A DNA stretch of 63,890 nt, filler included, from Stramenopiles sp. TOSAG23-2 (lineage: Eukaryota): assembly GCA_900128395.1 (NCBI GenBank). It is 3 parts of 3 records of this genome, joined end to end, with 100 filler letters (N's around TTAATTAATTAA, not from the genome) between each part and the next. Parts side by side here need not be neighbours in the genome. Positions count along the whole stretch, not along the records: positions 21,977 to 43,848 come from LT649526.1; 2 more parts are not named here. One strand, 5' to 3'. The notes beneath the pieces were generated by a model that had not been told where the DNA came from, ran no database searches, and worked only from the letters and a program-made list of their open reading frames with translations. The position numbers and the translations under genes were made by a program. Positions within the stretch are counted from its first letter, which is position 1. The number at the start of each line of letters is the position of its first letter. Below are positions 26,141-43,394 of this stretch, one piece after another.

Positions 26141-27253
26141 TTAAAAACTATCACTTCTCCATGAAAAAAATTTCTTCTTCATCGTTTCATTCGTATTATT
26201 ATTGTTATCACCATCCTTAATATCATTACTAGTAGTATTAGAATCACGATTGAAAACATAATAGCGCCATCCCCAGTCTGTTAACGATTCATCTACTAAA
26301 ATATTACCCCAATTTAAAATCTCCTTCGTGGCCATATATGGAACTTGTATTTCACATAACTTTTGATTATTTATAATATCATTATCCAATAATAATACAT
26401 GTTCAATTATCTTTTGAATGTAGATTTGACTTTTCTTCTGTTCAAAAATTGCAGTAGCTACGGCAAATTCAACTAATTGATAATTGTTTTGATGGTTTTT
26501 GCACCAACAATATGCCACAACTTCATTGTTTTCAACATATACATAATAACCATCATGATTGATAATAGCCATCTTATTATTATTATTCTTATTATTCTTA
26601 CTATTACTTTCAGCATTTTTCATAATATACTCAAAATCAATTAAAGTTCGATCTTTAAGAAATAATAATTCTTGAAACGTTTTATATAAATTTTGTAACA
26701 CTAATAAATCATCGTTTGTTGCTTTTCGTATTAACATATCATCATTTTTATTACTATCATTACATGAATCTGTATTTATTTGCCATTGACCATATTTTAC
26801 AATACCAATTTGATTCCATCCTAATTTACTATAATAATTTTGTAATGCTGGTTTTGATGAATGTAATAATGTTATAGAAATGTTTTTTTCTTTTAAAAAT
26901 TGTTTTGTGTATAATAACAATAATTTTGCTAGTCCTTTTCTTTGATATTCAGGATGTGTACAAACACTACCAATTCCTCCACAAGTTATTTTTTTATTAT
27001 TATATGTTATATAAAATATACACAATGTCGATAATATAATTGTTTTTTTCTTTTTCTCATCACTTTCATTATTAATATTATTTGTTTTAGTAGTCAAAAT
27101 TAAAATTTCTTTTGAATTATGATGTGTCTGTAATTGTTTTTCAAAATATTTTCTAGGGGTACCTTTTTTTGCAAAGCATAATGCAACAAAATCTAACCAA
27201 TTTGATATAGAGGTGGGTGTTTGTTGTAAGACGTTAATTTCGTAATTCTCCAT
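26141..27253 (-). CDS. GNAT-family acetyltransferase (Eis-like, possibly tandem GNAT)
   Basis: Motif A 'GGIGSVCTHPEYQRKGLAKLLL' and 'NYYSKLGW'. First ATG at 27253. Confidence 0.85.
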   Translation of the reverse strand: MENYEINVLQQTPTSISNWLDFVALCFAKKGTPRKYFEKQLQTHHNSKEILILTTKTNNINNESDEKKKKTIILSTLCIFYITYNNKKITCGGIGSVCTHPEYQRKGLAKLLLLYTKQFLKEKNISITLLHSSKPALQNYYSKLGWNQIGIVKYGQWQINTDSCNDSNKNDDMLIRKATNDDLLVLQNLYKTFQELLFLKDRTLIDFEYIMKNAESNSKNNKNNNNKMAIINHDGYYVYVENNEVVAYCWCKNHQNNYQLVEFAVATAIFEQKKSQIYIQKIIEHVLLLDNDIINNQKLCEIQVPYMATKEILNWGNILVDESLTDWGWRYYVFNRDSNTTSNDIKDGDNNNNTNETMKKKFFSWRSDSF

Positions 27254-27949
27254 GGTAAAAAATGATACCAATGTTTGTTTCGTATGACGACTGTAATATA
27301 ACTAATACGGCAGATGTTTTGATTCTTATAATATAATTATTTCAACAATATAATAACCTGTAGATATATATATTATTTTTACAAACAACATCATTTTTAA
27401 TTTGTTGTTTTGTTGCTTGTTGTTGTTGTAAACGATCGTATATTGGATCGTAGGCAATGCTGTGTCCATGGTAAATATATGCTAGCATGGTACTACGCCT
27501 GAAATCAATAGCATAGACACAGGGGGTGTTATTTTCAATTTGGCATTTTGGAAATGTTACAAATTCACAAATTCACATCAAACAGGTTTGGTAGCAATAA
27601 AAGTTGGATTTATCTATTAATTGTTGTACTACTTTCATCCTCTCAGTGAGATTATAATATACCTTATACCAGATTACCTTGTGTGTCTTACGCACTTACC
27701 ATCATTTACACACATCAAATCAAATAATAATATACAAGCACACAATATACATCAGATGCTTGATACCACAACCGGTGATGGTATATAGTCGGTCTATAAT
27801 AAACATAAACATACTGTAATATCTAAAACCTACAACAAAATATATAACAATATAAATACTGTAATATATATAATACCTGAATACATACAATTTTACTAAT
27901 TGATATATAGTAGCAAGGATCATAATATAAGTTGAAAAAAAGTAAAAAC

Positions 27950-30235
27950 ATGAATAATGTTGTTGTTGCTGATGATTCTATAACTTATGACCATTTAGTT
28001 GAAATATCAACGCGCATTGCAGCAATATTAAAGTCACGAAAAGAAACAATAGCAATAACAGAGTCTGCATGTGGTGGCTTAATATCATCTGCATTGCTTT
28101 CAATCCCAGGCGCATCCTCATTTTATAAAGGTGCAAATGTCGCATATAGCCGTGATTCCCAACGTGCGTATTTTCCATCTGATCTCATGGATAAAGTCAA
28201 AAATGGTAAAGTTAAATATGGTGCTGAAGAATTTATGTTATTACGTGCTTCAGATGTTGCAAGAAAATTAAATGCAACATATGGATTATCAGAAACTGGT
28301 CAAACTGGCCCTGTGTTTCTACGTGTAAAGCCACGCGGTCCATTTGATAATGTTACTGGATCATCAGATGGAGAAGGTGGTATAAAGCGTATGAAGAATG
28401 GAAGAAAAGGTCAAGCCCGAGCAGTTGTTGCTTTTTCAACATCATCCTCTTCTTCGAATTATATGATAAAAGTTGCCAAACGTCTTACTACAACATTTTC
28501 AAATAGGCAAAAAAATATGATGTATTTTGCATATAATGCATTAGAAATGGTAGAAAAGCATTTATTGTTATTACAAAATAATCGAGCGGTACAAGGTAAT
28601 TATCATTTAAAAAGTGCCGTTGAAGTTGTTGAACTATTAAAACGTAATGAAGTAACACCATTAGAGTTAATTGATTTGGTTGAAAAACGAATTGATGAGA
28701 CGGAATATTTAATTCATGCAACACCTATAACTTGTTTTGAGCGTGCACGAGCTAATGCAAGAAAATTAAAGATACCGGAAAATCCTCCGCCAGGATATTT
28801 ATATGGACTTCCAGTTCTGATCAAAGATTTAAATGGTGTAGAAGGTGTACGTTTTACGCATGGTAGTTTAATTTTTAAAGATAGAATTGCAAAACGAACT
28901 GGTCCTGTTGCCATGCAAATCGAAGCAATGGGTGGTATTGTCTGTGGAAAGACAAATGTCCCAGAATTTGGTGCAGGATCGAATAGTTTTAATGAAATTT
29001 TTCCTACCACAAAATCACCATATGATACTCGTACAACAGCTGGTGGTAGTAGTGGTGGTGCAGCAGCAGCTGTTAGTGCATGTCAGGCATGGTTATGCAA
29101 TGGTAGTGATTTAGGTGGTTCTTTACGTACACCAGCATCATTTTGTGGCATTGTTGGTTTTCGTACATCACCTGGCACAGTAGTTACGAAAGGTCCAAGC
29201 GGAAAACGAGCAAATTTTTTACATTCAATACAAGGCCCGATGGCTAGAACTGTAAAAGATTTAAGTTTATTTCTAGATACAATGACAATGAATCCGACAA
29301 CCGGAACATTGCCAGATAAAACAATTGGATGGGAAACATATGCAGATTATCCTAAACGACCTGCCAAGTTTTATTCATGGCAACATCTAGTTGAAGAAAC
29401 GTTGTCAACTCCAACTTGGGGAAAACCCCTGAAAATAGCATATTCAACTTTAAATTGCAACATAGCAAAAGAATATAATGCAGTCTGTAAAGATGCAGCA
29501 AATCGATTTTTTCAAAGCATTCAAAATATTAATGGCAGTAAATTTAATCATGTAAAAGAGCCATTTGATTTAGAGATGGCGGAAGATCATTTTTATTTAT
29601 TACGTGCACATTTATTTGGTGGTAGTTTTGGTAAATTTCCAAAAGATTGGTATGATTTATTGAAACCAGAAATTAAATGGAATTCAAATTGTTATCAATT
29701 ATCAAGTTTTCCAACTAGTAAAAGTGGATTAACCAATGTATTTAACAGAAATGAAGAATTCCATATACAAGTGAATCAATTTTTCAATGAATACGATGTA
29801 TTGATAACACCAGCGTCATTAGATGGTCCATTCAATGCAGATGTAAGATATCCACTGAGAAAATATGGTGATGTAGACGAACATTTTGAGTTTTCAAATT
29901 ATTTAAGTTGGATGATGCCGGCATGTAAAATTTCAACAACTAGTTGCCCAGCCATTGTTGTTCCTGTTGGTAAATTAAAAGATGGACGCCCCGTCTGTGT
30001 ACAAATGGTTTGTAAATTGAATAATGATATGAAACTTTTACAAATGGCAGCTCATTTAGAGCGTGTTATTGGATTTGATGCAAGAATGCCAAATCCAGTG
30101 AAAGGTACTTATGATTTAATTGCAGAAGGACCTAAAACAACAGCGGAAGCTGCATTACATTGTGATATCGCATTAAACAATTTTTTGGAAAAATATGATA
30201 CTACTACTGAGGGTAGTAAAAGTGCAAGATTGTGA
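27950..30235 (+). CDS. CinA/PncC-like domain fused to an amidase-signature-family amidase, C-terminal PTS1-like ARL
   Basis: N-terminal 'IAITESACGGLISSALLSIPGASSFYKG...YS' and 'GLSETG.TGP'. Amidase 'GLPVLIKDL', 'GKTNVPEFG', 'GGSSGG', 'GSDLGGSLRTPASFCG'. Ends KSARL*. Confidence 0.9.
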   Translation: MNNVVVADDSITYDHLVEISTRIAAILKSRKETIAITESACGGLISSALLSIPGASSFYKGANVAYSRDSQRAYFPSDLMDKVKNGKVKYGAEEFMLLRASDVARKLNATYGLSETGQTGPVFLRVKPRGPFDNVTGSSDGEGGIKRMKNGRKGQARAVVAFSTSSSSSNYMIKVAKRLTTTFSNRQKNMMYFAYNALEMVEKHLLLLQNNRAVQGNYHLKSAVEVVELLKRNEVTPLELIDLVEKRIDETEYLIHATPITCFERARANARKLKIPENPPPGYLYGLPVLIKDLNGVEGVRFTHGSLIFKDRIAKRTGPVAMQIEAMGGIVCGKTNVPEFGAGSNSFNEIFPTTKSPYDTRTTAGGSSGGAAAAVSACQAWLCNGSDLGGSLRTPASFCGIVGFRTSPGTVVTKGPSGKRANFLHSIQGPMARTVKDLSLFLDTMTMNPTTGTLPDKTIGWETYADYPKRPAKFYSWQHLVEETLSTPTWGKPLKIAYSTLNCNIAKEYNAVCKDAANRFFQSIQNINGSKFNHVKEPFDLEMAEDHFYLLRAHLFGGSFGKFPKDWYDLLKPEIKWNSNCYQLSSFPTSKSGLTNVFNRNEEFHIQVNQFFNEYDVLITPASLDGPFNADVRYPLRKYGDVDEHFEFSNYLSWMMPACKISTTSCPAIVVPVGKLKDGRPVCVQMVCKLNNDMKLLQMAAHLERVIGFDARMPNPVKGTYDLIAEGPKTTAEAALHCDIALNNFLEKYDTTTEGSKSARL

Positions 30236-30460
30236 AAAATTTGTATTAATATTAATAGTAGTATTAGTATACCGGCCGTACTGTGTAAATAATAATATAG
30301 ATATTCCAATAGCAACAGCTTAGGAGGTAGTAAAATAATAGATATAATACGAGGCTCGTATAGATATAGATACATTAAACATATACAAAACACAGAATAA
30401 TAATAATACATACATACAAATACAATTGAATGCACTGATATTAATATCAAAACAACAAAC

Positions 30461-33040
30461 ATGACGTTGTATAAAACAATTAGTATCCTTCTAATTGTTA
30501 GTAGTATATTCCTAATATACACGACCAATGCAACTACACCCTCAATATGGTTACCAGAATCAAAACATGCATCATATGTTTTTCTTCGACCAAATATATC
30601 ATTAGCTTCTCACTTTAATTTAAATAAGGAGAAAAACAATGCGGTGATAAGTACATTGAATATCAAAGTATCAGCTTCACAAGATGTTGTTCCAAACGAT
30701 GGACAACAACGTTTATTAGCAGCATATCGACTATTTGTAAATTCAATCGAAGTTACACAAGGACCTGGGAGAGGCGAAGTGCCTACATTTGCAACTACAA
30801 CCAAAGGAAATGCTATTTATGATGTTGTAACAGTAACATCCAAAGATATCCTTGGCAACGGAGATACGTTAGGACTGGCATTACAATGTTTTCAAGGCGA
30901 TGGCGGAACAGATGCATGGGCACAACTGGAAGTAGAGGCATTCAATACCAATAAGGAATCTCTTGGTATTTATCAAACAAACGTGAATGATTGGGTTGGA
31001 TATAATGCAGATGAAATATTTGAAAAAGGTCTACCAGATAAGTGTGGTAGAATTAATGAAAACATAAGAGCTGATATTTTTTCAAAAAATGCAATGTGGA
31101 AAGAAAATACATTTGTGCCAACTCATTCAAAAGGATGGATGAAAGTAGAGGGTAGAACACCACCAATAGAACCAATTGCAAAAGCGACAAAACCATTAGT
31201 GGTAAAATCAGGAATCGAGCCAAAATATGTTCATCAAATTGATGGATTGACATATTTCTTTGATTTTGGATATGAACAAATGTCTGGGATTCAACTTATG
31301 GTTCCTGGAAAAGGTCAAAATTTAGAGGGATTTAAAGTCGAAATTCGTTTAAGCGAAGAAGTAAATGGTACAGATAAAATTTTGTTTCCTGATACAAGTG
31401 GGAATAAATATATATCTAATTGTACGTTGGCAAATAATGGAGAGGATAGTATTATTGAATATCATGAATACCCTGGATTATGGCGATATGGCACGTTCAA
31501 ATTTTTCCCAAAAGATAAATTTATTAAATTTAAAAATGATAATAATATTGAATTTACCGTTAAAAGATGGGCGGTACAATATCCATTTAATGATGATGAT
31601 AGTTCCTTCACTTCAAGTTCAGACATGTTAAACAAAGTGTGGACGTTAATGAAAGATAGCCTGCGCCTTACATCATTAGATACATTTACCGATTCAAATA
31701 CTCGAGAACGATTGCCATATGAAGCCGATGGATATATTACAGCACGATCTAGATGGGTGTTGCAAGAAGAATATGAATGGCCAAAACATTCAATCAAACA
31801 TGTATTGCATAATCCAACATGGCCAACTGAATGGAAACAATTTACAATATTATTAGCACATGAACATTATATGATGACTGGAGATAATTCAATAGTTGAA
31901 GAATATTTTCATTTATTAAAAAACAATACGATGCATCCATTTATTCACCCTGATACAAATTTAGTTGATTTTACTGGGAAAATTGTATCACATCGATTTA
32001 ATTCATTATGCCATTCAACTATTGATTATTTCCCACCAAATGTAACTGATGGGGGCACATCTTGCGATATTGTAGATTGGGAAGAATCTTATAGATGTGG
32101 ATATAATTTTACAACTAAAAATACCGTGGTGAATGCATTTGCTTACAAATCAATGAAAATGCTCTCTGAACTTGCCATGTTGGTACCAGCGCTTGTAAAC
32201 GAAGCGAAACTTTTAAAGACACAAGCAGTAAATACAAAACAAGCTATTTTAAAGTTAATGTACAATAAGAAAACAGGGTTTTTTTGCGATGGTTTATGCT
32301 CGGAGACTGCAAATCCAGGTACATTTCATGCCCAGCATTATCCATTATGGTTAGGTGTAACACCAGATGAAAATGTAGAGATCGTTCATAAATATTTATC
32401 AAGTCAAGGAATGCGTGGTTCTACATACAGTTCACACAGTTTATTATATGGCTTATATGAGCGTACAGCTTCAATTGACCATGGACAAATAGGCTTGGAC
32501 CTTATGGTACAATGTTCTAATCAGAGTTGGTGTAATATGATAGAATCTGGTGCAACAACGAGTTGGGAGATGTGGAACTTTTATCAAGGCACCCATTCCC
32601 ATCCTTGGAGTTCAACACCTGCCAGTGTAATTGTTTTTGGTTTATTTGGTCTCAGACCCACCGTACCAGGTTGGAGTCGATGGCGTGTCAAGATTGCAAG
32701 TGGAAATTTGAAATTTGGTAAAATTAAAACCCCTACACCCAACGGACCAATTGTACAAAATTTTACTAAAAATGATAATGGCACCTTTATATTTCATTTA
32801 ATACAAATACCAAAAGGTACTATAGCAGAAGAAATATGTTTGCCTAACTTTCATACATCATTGAAGAAAAAAAATATTTTGAACGTTCATAACAATATTG
32901 ATATGATACATAATGATGTCAATGATGTAGTTTACATGTATGTAAATGGTAAAAAAATAAAAGCTAGATATGAAAATTTAAAATATAAAACATATGTATG
33001 CATCGATAATATTAAAGAAAGTGGTGTGTTTGTGTTGTAA
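30461..33040 (+). CDS. Secreted alpha-L-rhamnosidase-like glycoside hydrolase (GH78)
   Basis: Signal peptide, 'FFDFG', 'FTSSSDMLNKVW', 'DSNTRERLPYEADG', 'IVDW', 'GATTSWEMW', 'HSHPWSSTP'. Confidence 0.88.
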   Translation: MTLYKTISILLIVSSIFLIYTTNATTPSIWLPESKHASYVFLRPNISLASHFNLNKEKNNAVISTLNIKVSASQDVVPNDGQQRLLAAYRLFVNSIEVTQGPGRGEVPTFATTTKGNAIYDVVTVTSKDILGNGDTLGLALQCFQGDGGTDAWAQLEVEAFNTNKESLGIYQTNVNDWVGYNADEIFEKGLPDKCGRINENIRADIFSKNAMWKENTFVPTHSKGWMKVEGRTPPIEPIAKATKPLVVKSGIEPKYVHQIDGLTYFFDFGYEQMSGIQLMVPGKGQNLEGFKVEIRLSEEVNGTDKILFPDTSGNKYISNCTLANNGEDSIIEYHEYPGLWRYGTFKFFPKDKFIKFKNDNNIEFTVKRWAVQYPFNDDDSSFTSSSDMLNKVWTLMKDSLRLTSLDTFTDSNTRERLPYEADGYITARSRWVLQEEYEWPKHSIKHVLHNPTWPTEWKQFTILLAHEHYMMTGDNSIVEEYFHLLKNNTMHPFIHPDTNLVDFTGKIVSHRFNSLCHSTIDYFPPNVTDGGTSCDIVDWEESYRCGYNFTTKNTVVNAFAYKSMKMLSELAMLVPALVNEAKLLKTQAVNTKQAILKLMYNKKTGFFCDGLCSETANPGTFHAQHYPLWLGVTPDENVEIVHKYLSSQGMRGSTYSSHSLLYGLYERTASIDHGQIGLDLMVQCSNQSWCNMIESGATTSWEMWNFYQGTHSHPWSSTPASVIVFGLFGLRPTVPGWSRWRVKIASGNLKFGKIKTPTPNGPIVQNFTKNDNGTFIFHLIQIPKGTIAEEICLPNFHTSLKKKNILNVHNNIDMIHNDVNDVVYMYVNGKKIKARYENLKYKTYVCIDNIKESGVFVL

Positions 33041-40747: not shown

Positions 40748-43394
40748 ATGGTGAAAACAAAGTTTTACATACGCCAAACAAATATTATCTTTCGACATGG
40801 AGATCGTTCACCAATAACATCTTTAAAAGATACGCAGTTTTGGGAAAATCAAATTGCTGAGCAAAAAGATGTTATGCGTGGTTTTAATATTAGAAGAGAA
40901 GAAGGTGATGAGAAGCACACCATGGAAGGAAATCCGCCATTCGGTATGTTGACTAAAAAAGGTGTTGCTGGTATACAAGCAAAGGGCGAGCAATTTCGTA
41001 AAGACATTCTATCTAATGGTGGTACAATTGATTCATCTTATATTTCTTGTCGTTCATCTAATTTTAATAGAACAATTGGTTCTGCACAAAATTTTTTAAT
41101 TGGTCTTGGTATTGGAATCAATGATAAAAATATTGCCATTGATACGCGTTGTTGGAGAAATATGATACCAGATGGGGATTATCATGAATTTCATGAATTT
41201 TTAAGTCAATACCAAACAGAATTGCACGAGTATTCAAAAGACAATTTTGCAGACATACACCAAAACGTTGTTGATAAATTGTTAAAGTCTGGAATTTGTG
41301 GTTTTAAAATTGGACCAGATGGTAATTCAGTTCCAGGTGGAATAAATCTTGATCGGTTATGTGAAATACTAATATGTTTAAACACCTACAATCAACTTGG
41401 CAAAACTGGGATTACAATAGAAGAATATAAATCTATATTATCTATCAAAGAAAAATGGTGTTATGCTTTCAGTAAGATTCCAAAAATCATTCAATCTACT
41501 ATGGCACCATTTCTGTACAATATTATGAATCCAATACGTGAAATTGTTCAAAAAAATGAATATGTCGGTGGAAAAATGCAAATTAATATCTTCAGTGGAC
41601 ACGATTCGACGTTATATACGACATTGAATGCATTTAATTTAAGGCCAATTGGTTTAAGCGATAGGGAGAATAAAAATATGTCATGGTGTTCAAGTATGTG
41701 GCCAACGTACAGCGATACATTGCGTATTGATGTATTAGAAAAAATTGATGTGGAAAATAATCGTGCATCATCATCACATCAGCAGCAGCAGTTTTTCCCT
41801 ATTGTTGAATCAGATTCAGTGGATAATAATAAGAATGATCATAAAACTAAATTTTATGTACGTTTTATATACGGCAATGGCAATCATCCAGTTATAACAC
41901 CATTTGGGGAAAAATATCTAATAATACCGGCGAAGAAATTCAAATTTATTTGGGAAACTAATGATAGTATTGAAGAATTTTTTAATCAAACTTCCGTTCA
42001 TGCCAATGAAACTAATATGATATTTCAAGAATTTTCCATTTGTAAACGAAAAGGATTTTTAGGGTTACCAAGCGGGGATCCAATATTTAGTTTTCCAAAC
42101 AATGAATTTAAAATTTGGGATAAACTTGTAGATGAAATACCATCATTGTTAATGCAAAACTCTTCCTATTTCAGGAAAAAGATTTATGATATGAAAATAT
42201 TAAACCACACAGAATTAAAGACTAAAGCAGAGCTACGTCGAGGATATTTATTATTATCTGTGTTGGCAAACACATTTTTATTTGGTTTTGAAGAAGAAGA
42301 TCCACCATCTAAAATTCCAAAATCAATTGCTATACCATTATGTGGTATTGCAGAAAGATTAAAAATTGTCCCTGCATTGATACATGCATCTATTTGTTTA
42401 TACAATTATAAAAAAGTAAATCAAAATGATGGTTACAATGTTGATANNNNNNNNNNNNNNNNNCTTTATTGGTTCAAAAGATGAAAAATGGTTTTTTTTA
42501 GTAACTGCTGATATTGAGTTTCAAGGTAGTAAAATGTTAGCACCAGCAGTATATTTAACAAAAGCATTGCATGCAGCAACTGTTTTATTAGATGAGATTA
42601 ATAATAATAATGATAATAATAAAATTATTAATAAAGAATTTAATAATACTGAAAAGTTGTTAGAATTATGGATTCCATATGTAACATTTCAATTATATTT
42701 AATCGAAGATGCTATTAGAAAAATGATTCGATCATTTAAACGTATGAAAGAAGGATGCAATCCTAGTATCTTTTATAATTATATACGCCCTTTTTTAGCT
42801 GGAAGTAAGGGAAACCCATCAATGCCTGATGGTGTAATATATGATGGTGTCTTTGACAACAAACCTCAAATGTTTAGCGGCGGATCAGCAGCACAATCTA
42901 CGTTGTTTCCTGTATTAGATGCAATATTTAATATTAATCATGCAAAAATACCTGGTCCAAATTCATTTCTAAAAGAAATGCAACGTTTTTACATGCCACA
43001 TGAACATAATAATTTTGTTTTGTACTTATTGAAAAATCATAAGAATAACTCCATAACAGAATTTATTTCAAAAATCGATAGTTTAAATACAATGACAAAA
43101 AATTCCAATGGCTTCAAGCATACATATTCCATGTTAAAAACACGATATAATTTTTGTATTGCATCTTTGACAAATTTTCGTAGTACACATATTAATATTG
43201 TTGCAAGTTATATTATAAGTCAAGCAGCAAAAGTACGTAAATCAGAAAGTTCCTCGTCATCGTCTTCATCTTCAATGTCTTCTAATAAGAAAAGAAAACT
43301 TCATGAAGCAGCAGGTGGAAAAGGTACTGGTGGTTCGGATCTAATGGAATTTTTAAAACCAATACGAGATAATACAAAAGCGCATAATGTGTAA
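40748..43394 (+). CDS. Histidine acid phosphatase (clade 2) fused to indoleamine 2,3-dioxygenase; interrupted by a 17-N gap at 42447-42463
   Basis: Phosphatase: RHGDRSP, 'RSSNFNRTIGSA', 'FSGHDST'. IDO: 'DEKWFFLVT..IE', 'FYNYIRPFL', 'GGSAAQS', 'YMPHEH', 'FRSTH', 'KGTGGSDLMEFLK'. The apparent frameshift falls inside the N gap. Confidence 0.85.

Follow-up and report, generated by a model that had tools for sequence, protein, structure and literature searches.

A CinA-like domain fused to an amidase-signature enzyme in a marine protist, with a predicted peroxisomal targeting signal

The gene described here is located in a 63,890-nucleotide stretch of DNA from Stramenopiles sp. TOSAG23-2 (assembly GCA_900128395.1), hereafter called the window, which consists of three parts of three records joined end to end, the gene lying in the part taken from LT649526.1. 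It encodes a single protein in which a domain of the CinA family is followed by a complete amidase-signature enzyme, and which ends in Ala-Arg-Leu, a tripeptide of the peroxisomal targeting signal type 1 (PTS1) kind. The gene is best read as a lineage-specific fusion in which an amidase, placed after a peroxisomal CinA-like module, is carried into peroxisomes, a reading to which we give a probability of about 0.6. As both domains come from well-known families, the system as such is not of a new kind, and it is their combination that was not found elsewhere in the databases searched. The fusion also draws attention to what appears to be a eukaryotic clade of CinA-fold proteins in which the lysine essential for the bacterial enzyme PncC is consistently replaced and a peroxisomal signal is consistently present.

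The gene occupies the sole long frame at its place, and an in-frame TAA is found about 27 nt 5' of the ATG. In the 761-aa protein, Pfam recognizes CinA (PF02464) at aa 19-122 and Amidase (PF01425) at aa 240-697. Two hidden Markov models (HMMs) built in this work, one from 158 CinA-like sequences and the other from relatives of the amidase domain, give wider envelopes (Table 1) separated by only 6 residues with the frame uninterrupted, which agrees with the preliminary description of a CinA C-terminal-type domain at about aa 10-205 continuous with an amidase. The short linker lies where the stand-alone CinA-like relatives, according to the alignment, have their C-terminal tail and PTS1. The gene belongs to the nuclear genome of a marine protist that is AT-rich and has cilia or flagella, since the neighboring open reading frames (ORFs) are eukaryotic and include housekeeping genes and an intraflagellar transport (IFT)-type gene: the window codes for methionyl-tRNA synthetase, phenylalanyl-tRNA synthetase beta subunit, a kinesin motor, an aspartyl protease, EF-hand/IQ proteins and a 1809-aa WD40/TPR protein which matches the IFT140/IFT172 TPR models. 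The GC content of the window is about 30%, and that at third codon positions (GC3) is 0.17 in the fusion gene versus 0.18-0.32 in six neighboring genes.

The N-terminal domain reaches 65.8 bits with PF02464 against a cut-off of 23.5 (profile positions 4-104 of 155). The AlphaFold2 model of aa 1-217, produced from a 116-row alignment, has a mean predicted local distance difference test score (pLDDT) of 86.5 and a predicted template modelling score of 0.84, with pLDDT values below 50 at aa 134-145 only. A Foldseek search with this model resulted in 21 PDB matches at E ≤0.001, with a probability of 1.00 for CinA structures, and the matches shown all belong to the CinA superfamily (5kvk, 5v01, 5vu3, 4ct8, 6l19, 5kol, 2a9s and 6mr3), with target-normalised TM-scores of 0.71-0.81 for the single-domain CinA entries. 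The last helix of the model comprises aa 186-215. An insertion of about 33 aa following the GP motif is shared with the closest relatives and is missing from the bacterial ones, and it is predicted to be disordered (pLDDT 46-55 in 10-residue blocks of aa 121-150).

The same fold (Foldseek E 3e-9 to 8e-9) and the same Pfam family are found in PncC, the enzyme that deamidates nicotinamide mononucleotide (NMN) (EC 3.5.1.42; AtCinA of Agrobacterium, 2A9S; TtCinA of Thermus, 4CT8), most of whose active-site residues have counterparts here. Ser31, the nucleophile in AtCinA numbering, corresponds to Ser39 in the motif TESACGG (aa 37-43), S48 and Y58 correspond by alignment to Ser56 and Tyr66, and Thr116-Gly117 match T105-G106 of AtCinA and T340-G341 of TtCinA, while the probable counterpart of the phosphate-binding R145/R377 is Arg186, as judged from block order and position and not from a direct alignment to 2A9S (roles of the residues from PMC5384747 and PMC4246079). 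The essential lysine (K63 in AtCinA, K301 in TtCinA) is replaced by Gln71. A phmmer search against PDB sequences aligned aa 29-132 with residues 259-356 of the Thermus thermophilus protein, with Tyr66 on Tyr296 and Gln71 on Lys301, and the 158-row MAFFT alignment placed Gln71 on the Lys of the canonical P0177 (AESCTGG/YSNEVK), so that the retained Ser and the Gln in YSRDSQ (aa 66-71) had been correctly recognized in the initial reading of the sequence. In AtCinA, both S31A and K63A abolish activity with no effect on stability (PMC5384747), Lys301 of TtCinA was described as absolutely conserved and proposed to be the general base (PMC4246079), and the PncC domain of M. tuberculosis CinA is inactivated by K323A as the standard mutation (PMC9033802).

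Other differences from PncC include an Arg instead of Asn60 in the YxNxxK block, Glu115 immediately before the catalytic Thr, the insertion, and the fusion to an amidase, as PncC is either stand-alone or follows a COG1058/MocF domain. The NCBIfam PncC/CinA models all remain below their cut-offs: TIGR00199 with 37.9 versus 68.9 bits, PRK03661 with 34.8 versus 212, PRK00549 with 50.7 versus 379 and TIGR00200 with 31.3 versus 243. Because of Gln71 at the essential position and these sub-threshold scores, the domain is CinA-like and not demonstrable as an NMN deamidase, and NMN deamidation by the canonical mechanism seems unlikely. One more NCBIfam model, NF002972, a CinA-related equivalog named "2-oxo-tetronate isomerase", gives 36-50 bits, below its cut-off, on bacterial CinA-like members; its name hints at a CinA-fold annotation with chemistry other than deamidation, and no paper on it was found in the literature searched.

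The exhaustive HMMER search of 1.84 billion representative sequences for relatives of this domain resulted in 2506 matches at E ≤0.001, 125 at ≤1e-10 and three at ≤1e-30. The 158-row alignment was composed of sequences of at least 100 aa from the best 150 representatives and of the matches of another search. In its Lys column Arg prevails (98 rows), followed by Gln (12) and Lys (11), and block P-I mostly reads AESS[AT]GG. The nucleophile column contains Ser in 125 of the 158 relatives, and Glu precedes the catalytic Thr in 141, the canonical P0177 and P0281 having T and I there; in two other alignments of CinA-like relatives Glu115 is invariant. Judging by the patterns in the Lys, P-I and Glu columns, the window domain is part of a large branch of the CinA family that lies outside PncC. 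In the tree it falls into a six-row clade with P0121, P0122, P0123, P0124 and P0140, with a support of 99 in the Shimodaira-Hasegawa-like approximate likelihood-ratio test (SH-aLRT). The closest relatives are stand-alone proteins of about 200 aa, with P0121 being 55% identical to the CinA-like domain of the window. All members of the closest clade that cover the Lys site have Gln there, which is therefore not a one-off change; the clade motifs (Y[ST]xxxQ and the SETGQTGP type) are also found in the fragments P0149, P0250, P0126 and P0127. A full-length alignment of the fusion protein with its relatives was tried and dropped, as MAFFT misplaced the CinA-like rows and the identity of P0121 fell from 54% to 32%.

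All five natural C-termini in the closest CinA-like group are of the PTS1 type (VAKL, SAHL, ASRL, HARL and SPRL), and a peroxisomal signal on the CinA-like side may thus be regarded as well supported by the sequences. P0122 contains a 30-residue in-frame insert, with Val as its first and Gln as its last residue, which would fit an unspliced intron. PTS1-type ends are also seen in other CinA-family groups outside this clade, in the proteins P0183 (SRL), P0210, P0258 and P0269 (all AKL), which have other residues in place of the nucleophile Ser (FEATTGG, MEATTGG, AETAAGG). It may be that CinA-fold proteins are directed to peroxisomes more widely among eukaryotes, with several variants of the active site that are independent of one another.

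The C-terminal domain reaches 217.4 bits with the Amidase model PF01425 against a cut-off of 27 and matches positions 2-445 of the 445 in the profile. Its Ser-cisSer-Lys triad, reported as complete in the preliminary description, is indeed intact in the alignments: K292, S367 and S391, separated by 75 and 24 residues, align with VKD, GGSSGG and GGSIR of Aquifex GatA, and in the 74-row amidase alignment the corresponding columns K76 and S151 are nearly invariant and S175 is invariant. No substrate-defined equivalog (GatA, AtzE, allophanate hydrolase, IaaH etc.) is reached, all 25 NCBIfam models listed being below cut-off, and the top one is the subfamily model PRK07486 with 245 versus 465 bits. 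The nearest solved structures are those of GatA, urethanases, ClbL and NylA (E 1e-37 to 1e-30), all matching the N-terminal half only. The domain is 38-50% identical to protist and alphaproteobacterial amidases, and P0002, the closest relative consisting of an amidase only, has its start Met near aa 218 of the window protein.

In a quick maximum-likelihood tree of 74 sequences, the amidase is placed in a 28-row clade (SH-aLRT 100) opposite a bacterial side of 46 rows. This clade takes in all eight sequences with eukaryotic names (Symbiodinium, Durusdinium, Prorocentrum, Chrysophaeum, MMETSP and EukProt entries), whereas the four with bacterial names are all outside it; the pairing of the window protein with P0022 inside it is a meeting of long branches and not trustworthy. 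Given this eukaryote-holding clade, the amidase is to be considered an old protist gene with alphaproteobacteria-like sisters and not a recent transfer. The bacterial derivation put forward initially is not supported as a recent event: in addition to the position of the amidase, the CinA-like domain groups with stand-alone proteins bearing PTS1, and the GC3 of the gene is near that of its neighbors. Two amidase relatives, P0026 and P0029 (about 40% identity), possess an N-terminal glyoxalase/VOC domain (PF00903), and P0015 and P0017 are extended at the N-terminus by 160-320 aa that match no family; this amidase lineage seems prone to N-terminal fusions.

The -ARL ending noted in the preliminary description is present, in the tail SKSARL, and the [SAC][KRH][LM] pattern occurs at the end of only one of the 36 window ORFs of at least 100 aa, namely the fusion protein. 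The tail (...EGSKSARL) continues for about 10 aa after the point where P0002 stops. As to conservation of a PTS1 in homologues, the result is split: it is seen in the CinA-like relatives and not in the amidase relatives, none of the 119 listed having a strict PTS1. A peroxisomal location of the fusion protein is suggested by these endings. The literature search yielded no paper linking CinA/PncC-type proteins with peroxisomes or PTS1, and nothing relevant on a CinA-amidase fusion or on an amidase signature combined with PTS1.

An independent copy of the gene is provided by a metagenome contig, L108, which is collinear with the window in two pieces of 99.3% and 98.7% identity and encodes the same fused protein (760 of 761 aa identical). 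Within the 2286 bases of the ORF there are two nucleotide differences; the BLAST piece contains 11 mismatches and 4 gaps in all, and those outside the ORF fall in about 260 flanking bases. L108 was the only locus found in the metagenome contig scan, which was made with the alignment of the CinA-like clade and returned the same gene only and no diverged relatives. The 90%-identity cluster of the fused protein has 41 members, located on 18 contigs. Of the 20 runs listed in a run search, which belong to nine studies, 17 are RNA, and the runs with an organism label are all marine or seawater metatranscriptomes, many of them polyA-selected. In total, 22 contigs from four runs of four studies were placed on the window; 21 of these fall in 27875-30251 and 18 are at least 99% alike. 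These contigs are assembled and show presence in RNA libraries, not transcript ends. None of the 22 contains a joint, so there is no sign of an intron and the gene is still to be regarded as intronless, as initially described. Transcription of the fusion gene is likely. Directly 3' of the gene, the stretch 30252-30335 is a hotspot of structural variation: besides the difference between the window and L108 (Table 1), RNA contigs of two studies (X1 and X5) depart from the window at 30251 and continue with up to 243 nt of a third sequence, which is absent from the window.

The architecture, which had not been recognized when the sequence was first read, has no second example in the databases searched. 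Among the top 120 of 6651 matches, both Pfam families occur together in the window protein only, which was also the only protein matching the N-terminal domain among 1436 candidates of 418-1332 aa. The best 150 representatives for this domain include 149 of at most 283 aa and a single longer one, P0177 (575 aa), which is of the MocF-CinA type, and none of the 119 listed amidase relatives contains a CinA-like domain by HMM. In the ESM Atlas, all 30 matches to the full protein are amidase-only clusters, and the N-terminal part matches CinA-only clusters with scores of up to 0.85, which are leads only. Neither 5.8 billion clustered proteins nor the best 150 of 1.84 billion representatives nor the large Atlas clusters yielded a second CinA-like/amidase fusion, which is to be understood as "not found" and not as "absent", because such searches can miss fusions within 50% clusters, in small clusters, or unrelated CinA and amidase fusions. 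According to the classification of Sanchez-Carron et al. (2013), CinA is "occasionally fused with other domains" (PMC3855486).

As to how the fusion might have arisen, a peroxisomal CinA-like gene would have been joined to a downstream amidase gene by a read-through type of event, losing its own stop, tail and PTS1, and the new -ARL at the end of the amidase would keep the product peroxisomal; the order of these events is suggested by the comparison with the stand-alone relatives. The amidase would thereby be imported along with the CinA-like module and would almost certainly hydrolyze some amide. The CinA-like domain may bind a phosphorylated, nucleotide-like ligand and either use Glu115 or another residue as a base, which would be new chemistry, or serve for ligand binding or dimerisation only. 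A domain-domain binding test gave a score of 0.00 with a mark of 0.32 and speaks neither for nor against contact between the two parts.

Several observations weigh against this reading. On the side of the targeting signal, the amidase clade lends no support to a peroxisomal function, and two members of the CinA-like clade, P0123 and P0124, lack a PTS1 ending. P0123 stops within the last helix and P0124 enters a Cys/Trp-rich stretch absent from its close relative P0250, and we assume that both ends are truncated or misread. The eukaryotic origin of the stand-alone relatives is itself only suggested by their PTS1-type endings and the intron-like insert of P0122. On the side of expression, no single RNA contig extends past the domain boundary by at least 31 letters in both directions, and the boundary is only tiled by X6 record 18 (28381-28589) and X5 record 14 (28570-28843) with a 20-nt overlap. 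An internal start yielding the amidase alone is therefore possible, and the continuity of the protein depends chiefly on the frame being open in both of two independent assemblies. Since RNA libraries can contain DNA, transcription is likely and not proven. Finally, the bacterial relatives are not gene neighbors, so nothing independent connects the two activities: there was no CinA-like gene within 8 kb of any of the 12 best bacterial amidase loci in 404 genomes, and only one of 19 evenly sampled CinA-like loci had an amidase-like ORF, weak and partial, within 1.5 kb. The idea of bacterial homologues being operon neighbors is not borne out by these counts.

Other features of the bacterial loci are as follows. 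In a narrow sample of 80 CinA-like loci, all Bradyrhizobium-like, 26 have an amidase-like ORF within 6 kb, none of them abutting; it is on the opposite strand in 24 of these 26, and the nearest is about 0.5 kb off. The neighbors of the bacterial CinA-like genes are heterogeneous and include metallo-beta-lactamase (MBL)-fold, Amidohydro_2, beta-lactamase family and short-chain dehydrogenase/reductase (SDR) genes, and an SDR gene is found within about 1 kb of the bacterial amidase in four of five loci, abutting it in two (L100 and L105). A CinA-like gene is present in 8 of 11 sampled amidase-bearing genomes versus 19 of 401 genomes overall, with the two genes being more than 1 Mb apart in all five genomes that have both on one contig. 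This co-occurrence was given no weight as a functional link, as the genomes are large and related, all of them sampled around one Bradyrhizobium center, and kinship can explain it. In some Bradyrhizobium/Tardiphaga-type genomes, a CinA-like gene with AESS[AT]GG and Arg at the Lys site lies directly 3' of an MBL-fold gene on the same strand, an order observed in 2 of 3 and 2 of 19 loci examined (L005 4897-6480; L072 4931-6486; L109; L114).

Among the alternatives, the one deserving the most attention, although doubtful, is that the CinA-like domain is catalytically dead and acts as a ligand sensor or dimerisation module for the amidase, which would be the sole enzyme. The general-base Lys is lost, and CinA lineages without activity have been described (YdeJ, YfaY and the fungal lineage 2.2.3.4; PMC3855486). 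According to the same source, CinA active sites span the dimer interface, G46 and S48 being contributed by the neighboring subunit, and the domain could therefore merely dimerise the amidase. However, the clade conserves Ser39, Glu38, Thr116, Tyr66, Ser56 and Arg186, and there is hardly any variation at Glu115 among the 158 relatives, which fits a maintained active or binding site, and the stand-alone relatives have no amidase to regulate.

It is rather unlikely that -ARL is fortuitous and the fusion protein cytosolic. PTS1 tripeptides do occur by chance and, as mentioned above, the amidase relatives lack them, but only 1 of the 36 window ORFs has such an ending, all five natural C-termini of the closest CinA-like clade read [SAP][KRH]L, and here the tripeptide terminates a tail of about 10 aa added past the end of P0002, with Lys at position -5.

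Still less probable is a working NMN deamidase (PncC) in the N-terminal part, with the protein taking part in pyridine-nucleotide salvage, as the preliminary description had suggested alongside amide hydrolysis. The CinA fold of the model and the retained Ser39, Thr116, Tyr66, Ser56 and Arg186 would suit such an enzyme, but Gln71 occupies, throughout the clade, the position of the Lys required in both published mechanisms, and the sub-cut-off NCBIfam scores and the change of Asn60 to Arg point the same way. This function is less likely given the missing Lys and the scores and may be called unsupported, not refuted.

Very improbable is an artefact of assembly or gene modelling, or bacterial contamination, in which two genes were wrongly joined: none of the RNA contigs bridges the junction with 31 nt on both flanks and the close amidase relatives are all single-domain, but the frame runs uninterrupted through the 6-aa gap between the envelopes, recurs in the separate metagenome contig and the 41-member cluster on 18 contigs, is tiled across the junction by RNA contigs with no stop or joint, and is flanked by eukaryotic genes of similar codon composition.

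The fusion can be compared with several known systems. Two-domain bacterial CinA, consisting of a COG1058/MocF ADP-ribose pyrophosphatase and PncC, likewise combines a CinA-type domain with a second hydrolase in one polypeptide, and both its parts handle small nitrogen- or nucleotide-related metabolites (PMC3680494, PMC9033802). In the window protein, however, the order is reversed with the CinA-like domain being N-terminal, the partner is an amidase-signature enzyme, and Pfam detects no MocF domain. The fungal CinA lineage 2.2.3.4 is similarly eukaryotic, has lost the catalytic Lys and shares the P-I ending ACGG, whereas its Ser is lost too (SEAACGG) and Arg stands at the Lys site (PMC3855486). 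The fungal sequences P0252, P0254, P0263 and P0264 form a different clade in the tree and have no PTS1 ending. With the amidase-signature family (GatA, PRK07486) the window protein shares the Lys-cisSer-Ser triad and the GGSSGG signature, while among the 120 homologues listed it is the only member with an N-terminal CinA-like domain and a PTS1. Fused members of this family include allophanate hydrolase within urea amidolyase. Peroxisomal enzymes related to NAD are Pnc1, the nicotinamidase of yeast, and Npy1 and NUDT12, which are Nudix NADH pyrophosphatases; they are a precedent for pyridine-nucleotide breakdown and deamidation within peroxisomes and would be a fitting context for a CinA-like protein bearing PTS1, although their folds are unrelated to the window protein.

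A bolder proposal, which we consider improbable, is that the stand-alone PTS1-bearing CinA-like proteins and the fusion constitute an unrecognised family of eukaryotic peroxisomal enzymes with a Ser/Glu(/Gln) active site where PncC has a Ser/Lys dyad, acting on a phosphorylated pyridine or other ribotide amide, and that the fusion is a Rosetta stone coupling this activity to a second, amidase-catalysed deamidation in one marine-protist pathway. The substrates could then be, for example, NMN or its reduced form NMNH released by peroxisomal NADH pyrophosphatases. Should the proteins of the clade be active, the peroxisomal metabolism of abundant, uncultured marine protists would gain a new reaction, and the fusion would name a candidate partner enzyme.

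Table 1 Coordinates of the CinA-like/amidase fusion gene, its domains and residues, and the adjacent variable segment in the window
Feature	Position	Strand	Details
CinA-like/amidase fusion gene	27950..30235	+	761-aa ORF, ATG to TGA, no intron
CinA-like domain, aa 11-210	27980..28579	+	Subfamily HMM envelope, E 5.6e-50
Ser39, equivalent of PncC nucleophile Ser31 (AtCinA numbering)	28064..28066	+	TESACGG, aa 37-43
Gln71, at the essential PncC Lys position (K63 AtCinA / K301 TtCinA)	28160..28162	+	YSRDSQ, aa 66-71
Glu115-Thr116	28292..28297	+	Thr116 = T105/T340; Glu115 = subfamily hallmark
Insertion of about 33 aa, aa 123-155, predicted disordered	28316..28414	+	Closest clade only; alignment and pLDDT
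Arg186, start of last helix, likely equivalent of phosphate-binding R145/R377	28505..28507	+	Invariant in clade alignment
Short linker, aa 211-216	28580..28597	+	HMM envelopes; helix aa 186-215 of the N-terminal domain model covers most of it
Amidase-signature domain, aa 217-751	28598..30202	+	HMM envelope
Lys292, catalytic triad (LIKDL)	28823..28825	+	Alignments
Ser367, cis-Ser of triad (GGSSGG, aa 365-370)	29048..29050	+	Alignments
Ser391, nucleophile (GGSLR)	29120..29122	+	Alignments
C-terminal Ala-Arg-Leu, PTS1-type, Lys at -5	30224..30232	+	Tail SKSARL, aa 756-761
Variable segment 3' of the gene, outside the protein	30252..30335	.	84 nt; 27 nt instead in L108 (2737-2763)

Some genes surrounding the fusion gene are worth mentioning in their own right. 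The upstream neighbor, 26141-27253(-), encodes a 370-aa GNAT acetyltransferase of the Acetyltransf_9 type with Asn-rich low-complexity runs and, with a GC content of 0.25, is the most AT-rich among the genes compared. The next gene downstream, 30461-33040(+), encodes a protein of 859 aa with a hydrophobic N-terminus and an alpha-L-rhamnosidase six-hairpin domain (PF17389, 98.8 bits), a glycosidase family with a bacterial name which is encoded here by a protist. Further along, a 578-aa ORF, 40748-42484(+), matches two families, histidine phosphatase branch 2 (its start) over aa 8-120 and indoleamine 2,3-dioxygenase (its first third) over aa 427-561, and it is overlapped and followed by another ORF, 42426-43394(+). 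The ORFs in 40748-43394 may represent a fusion of an unusual kind or, alternatively, two genes or exons joined across an intron or a frameshift.

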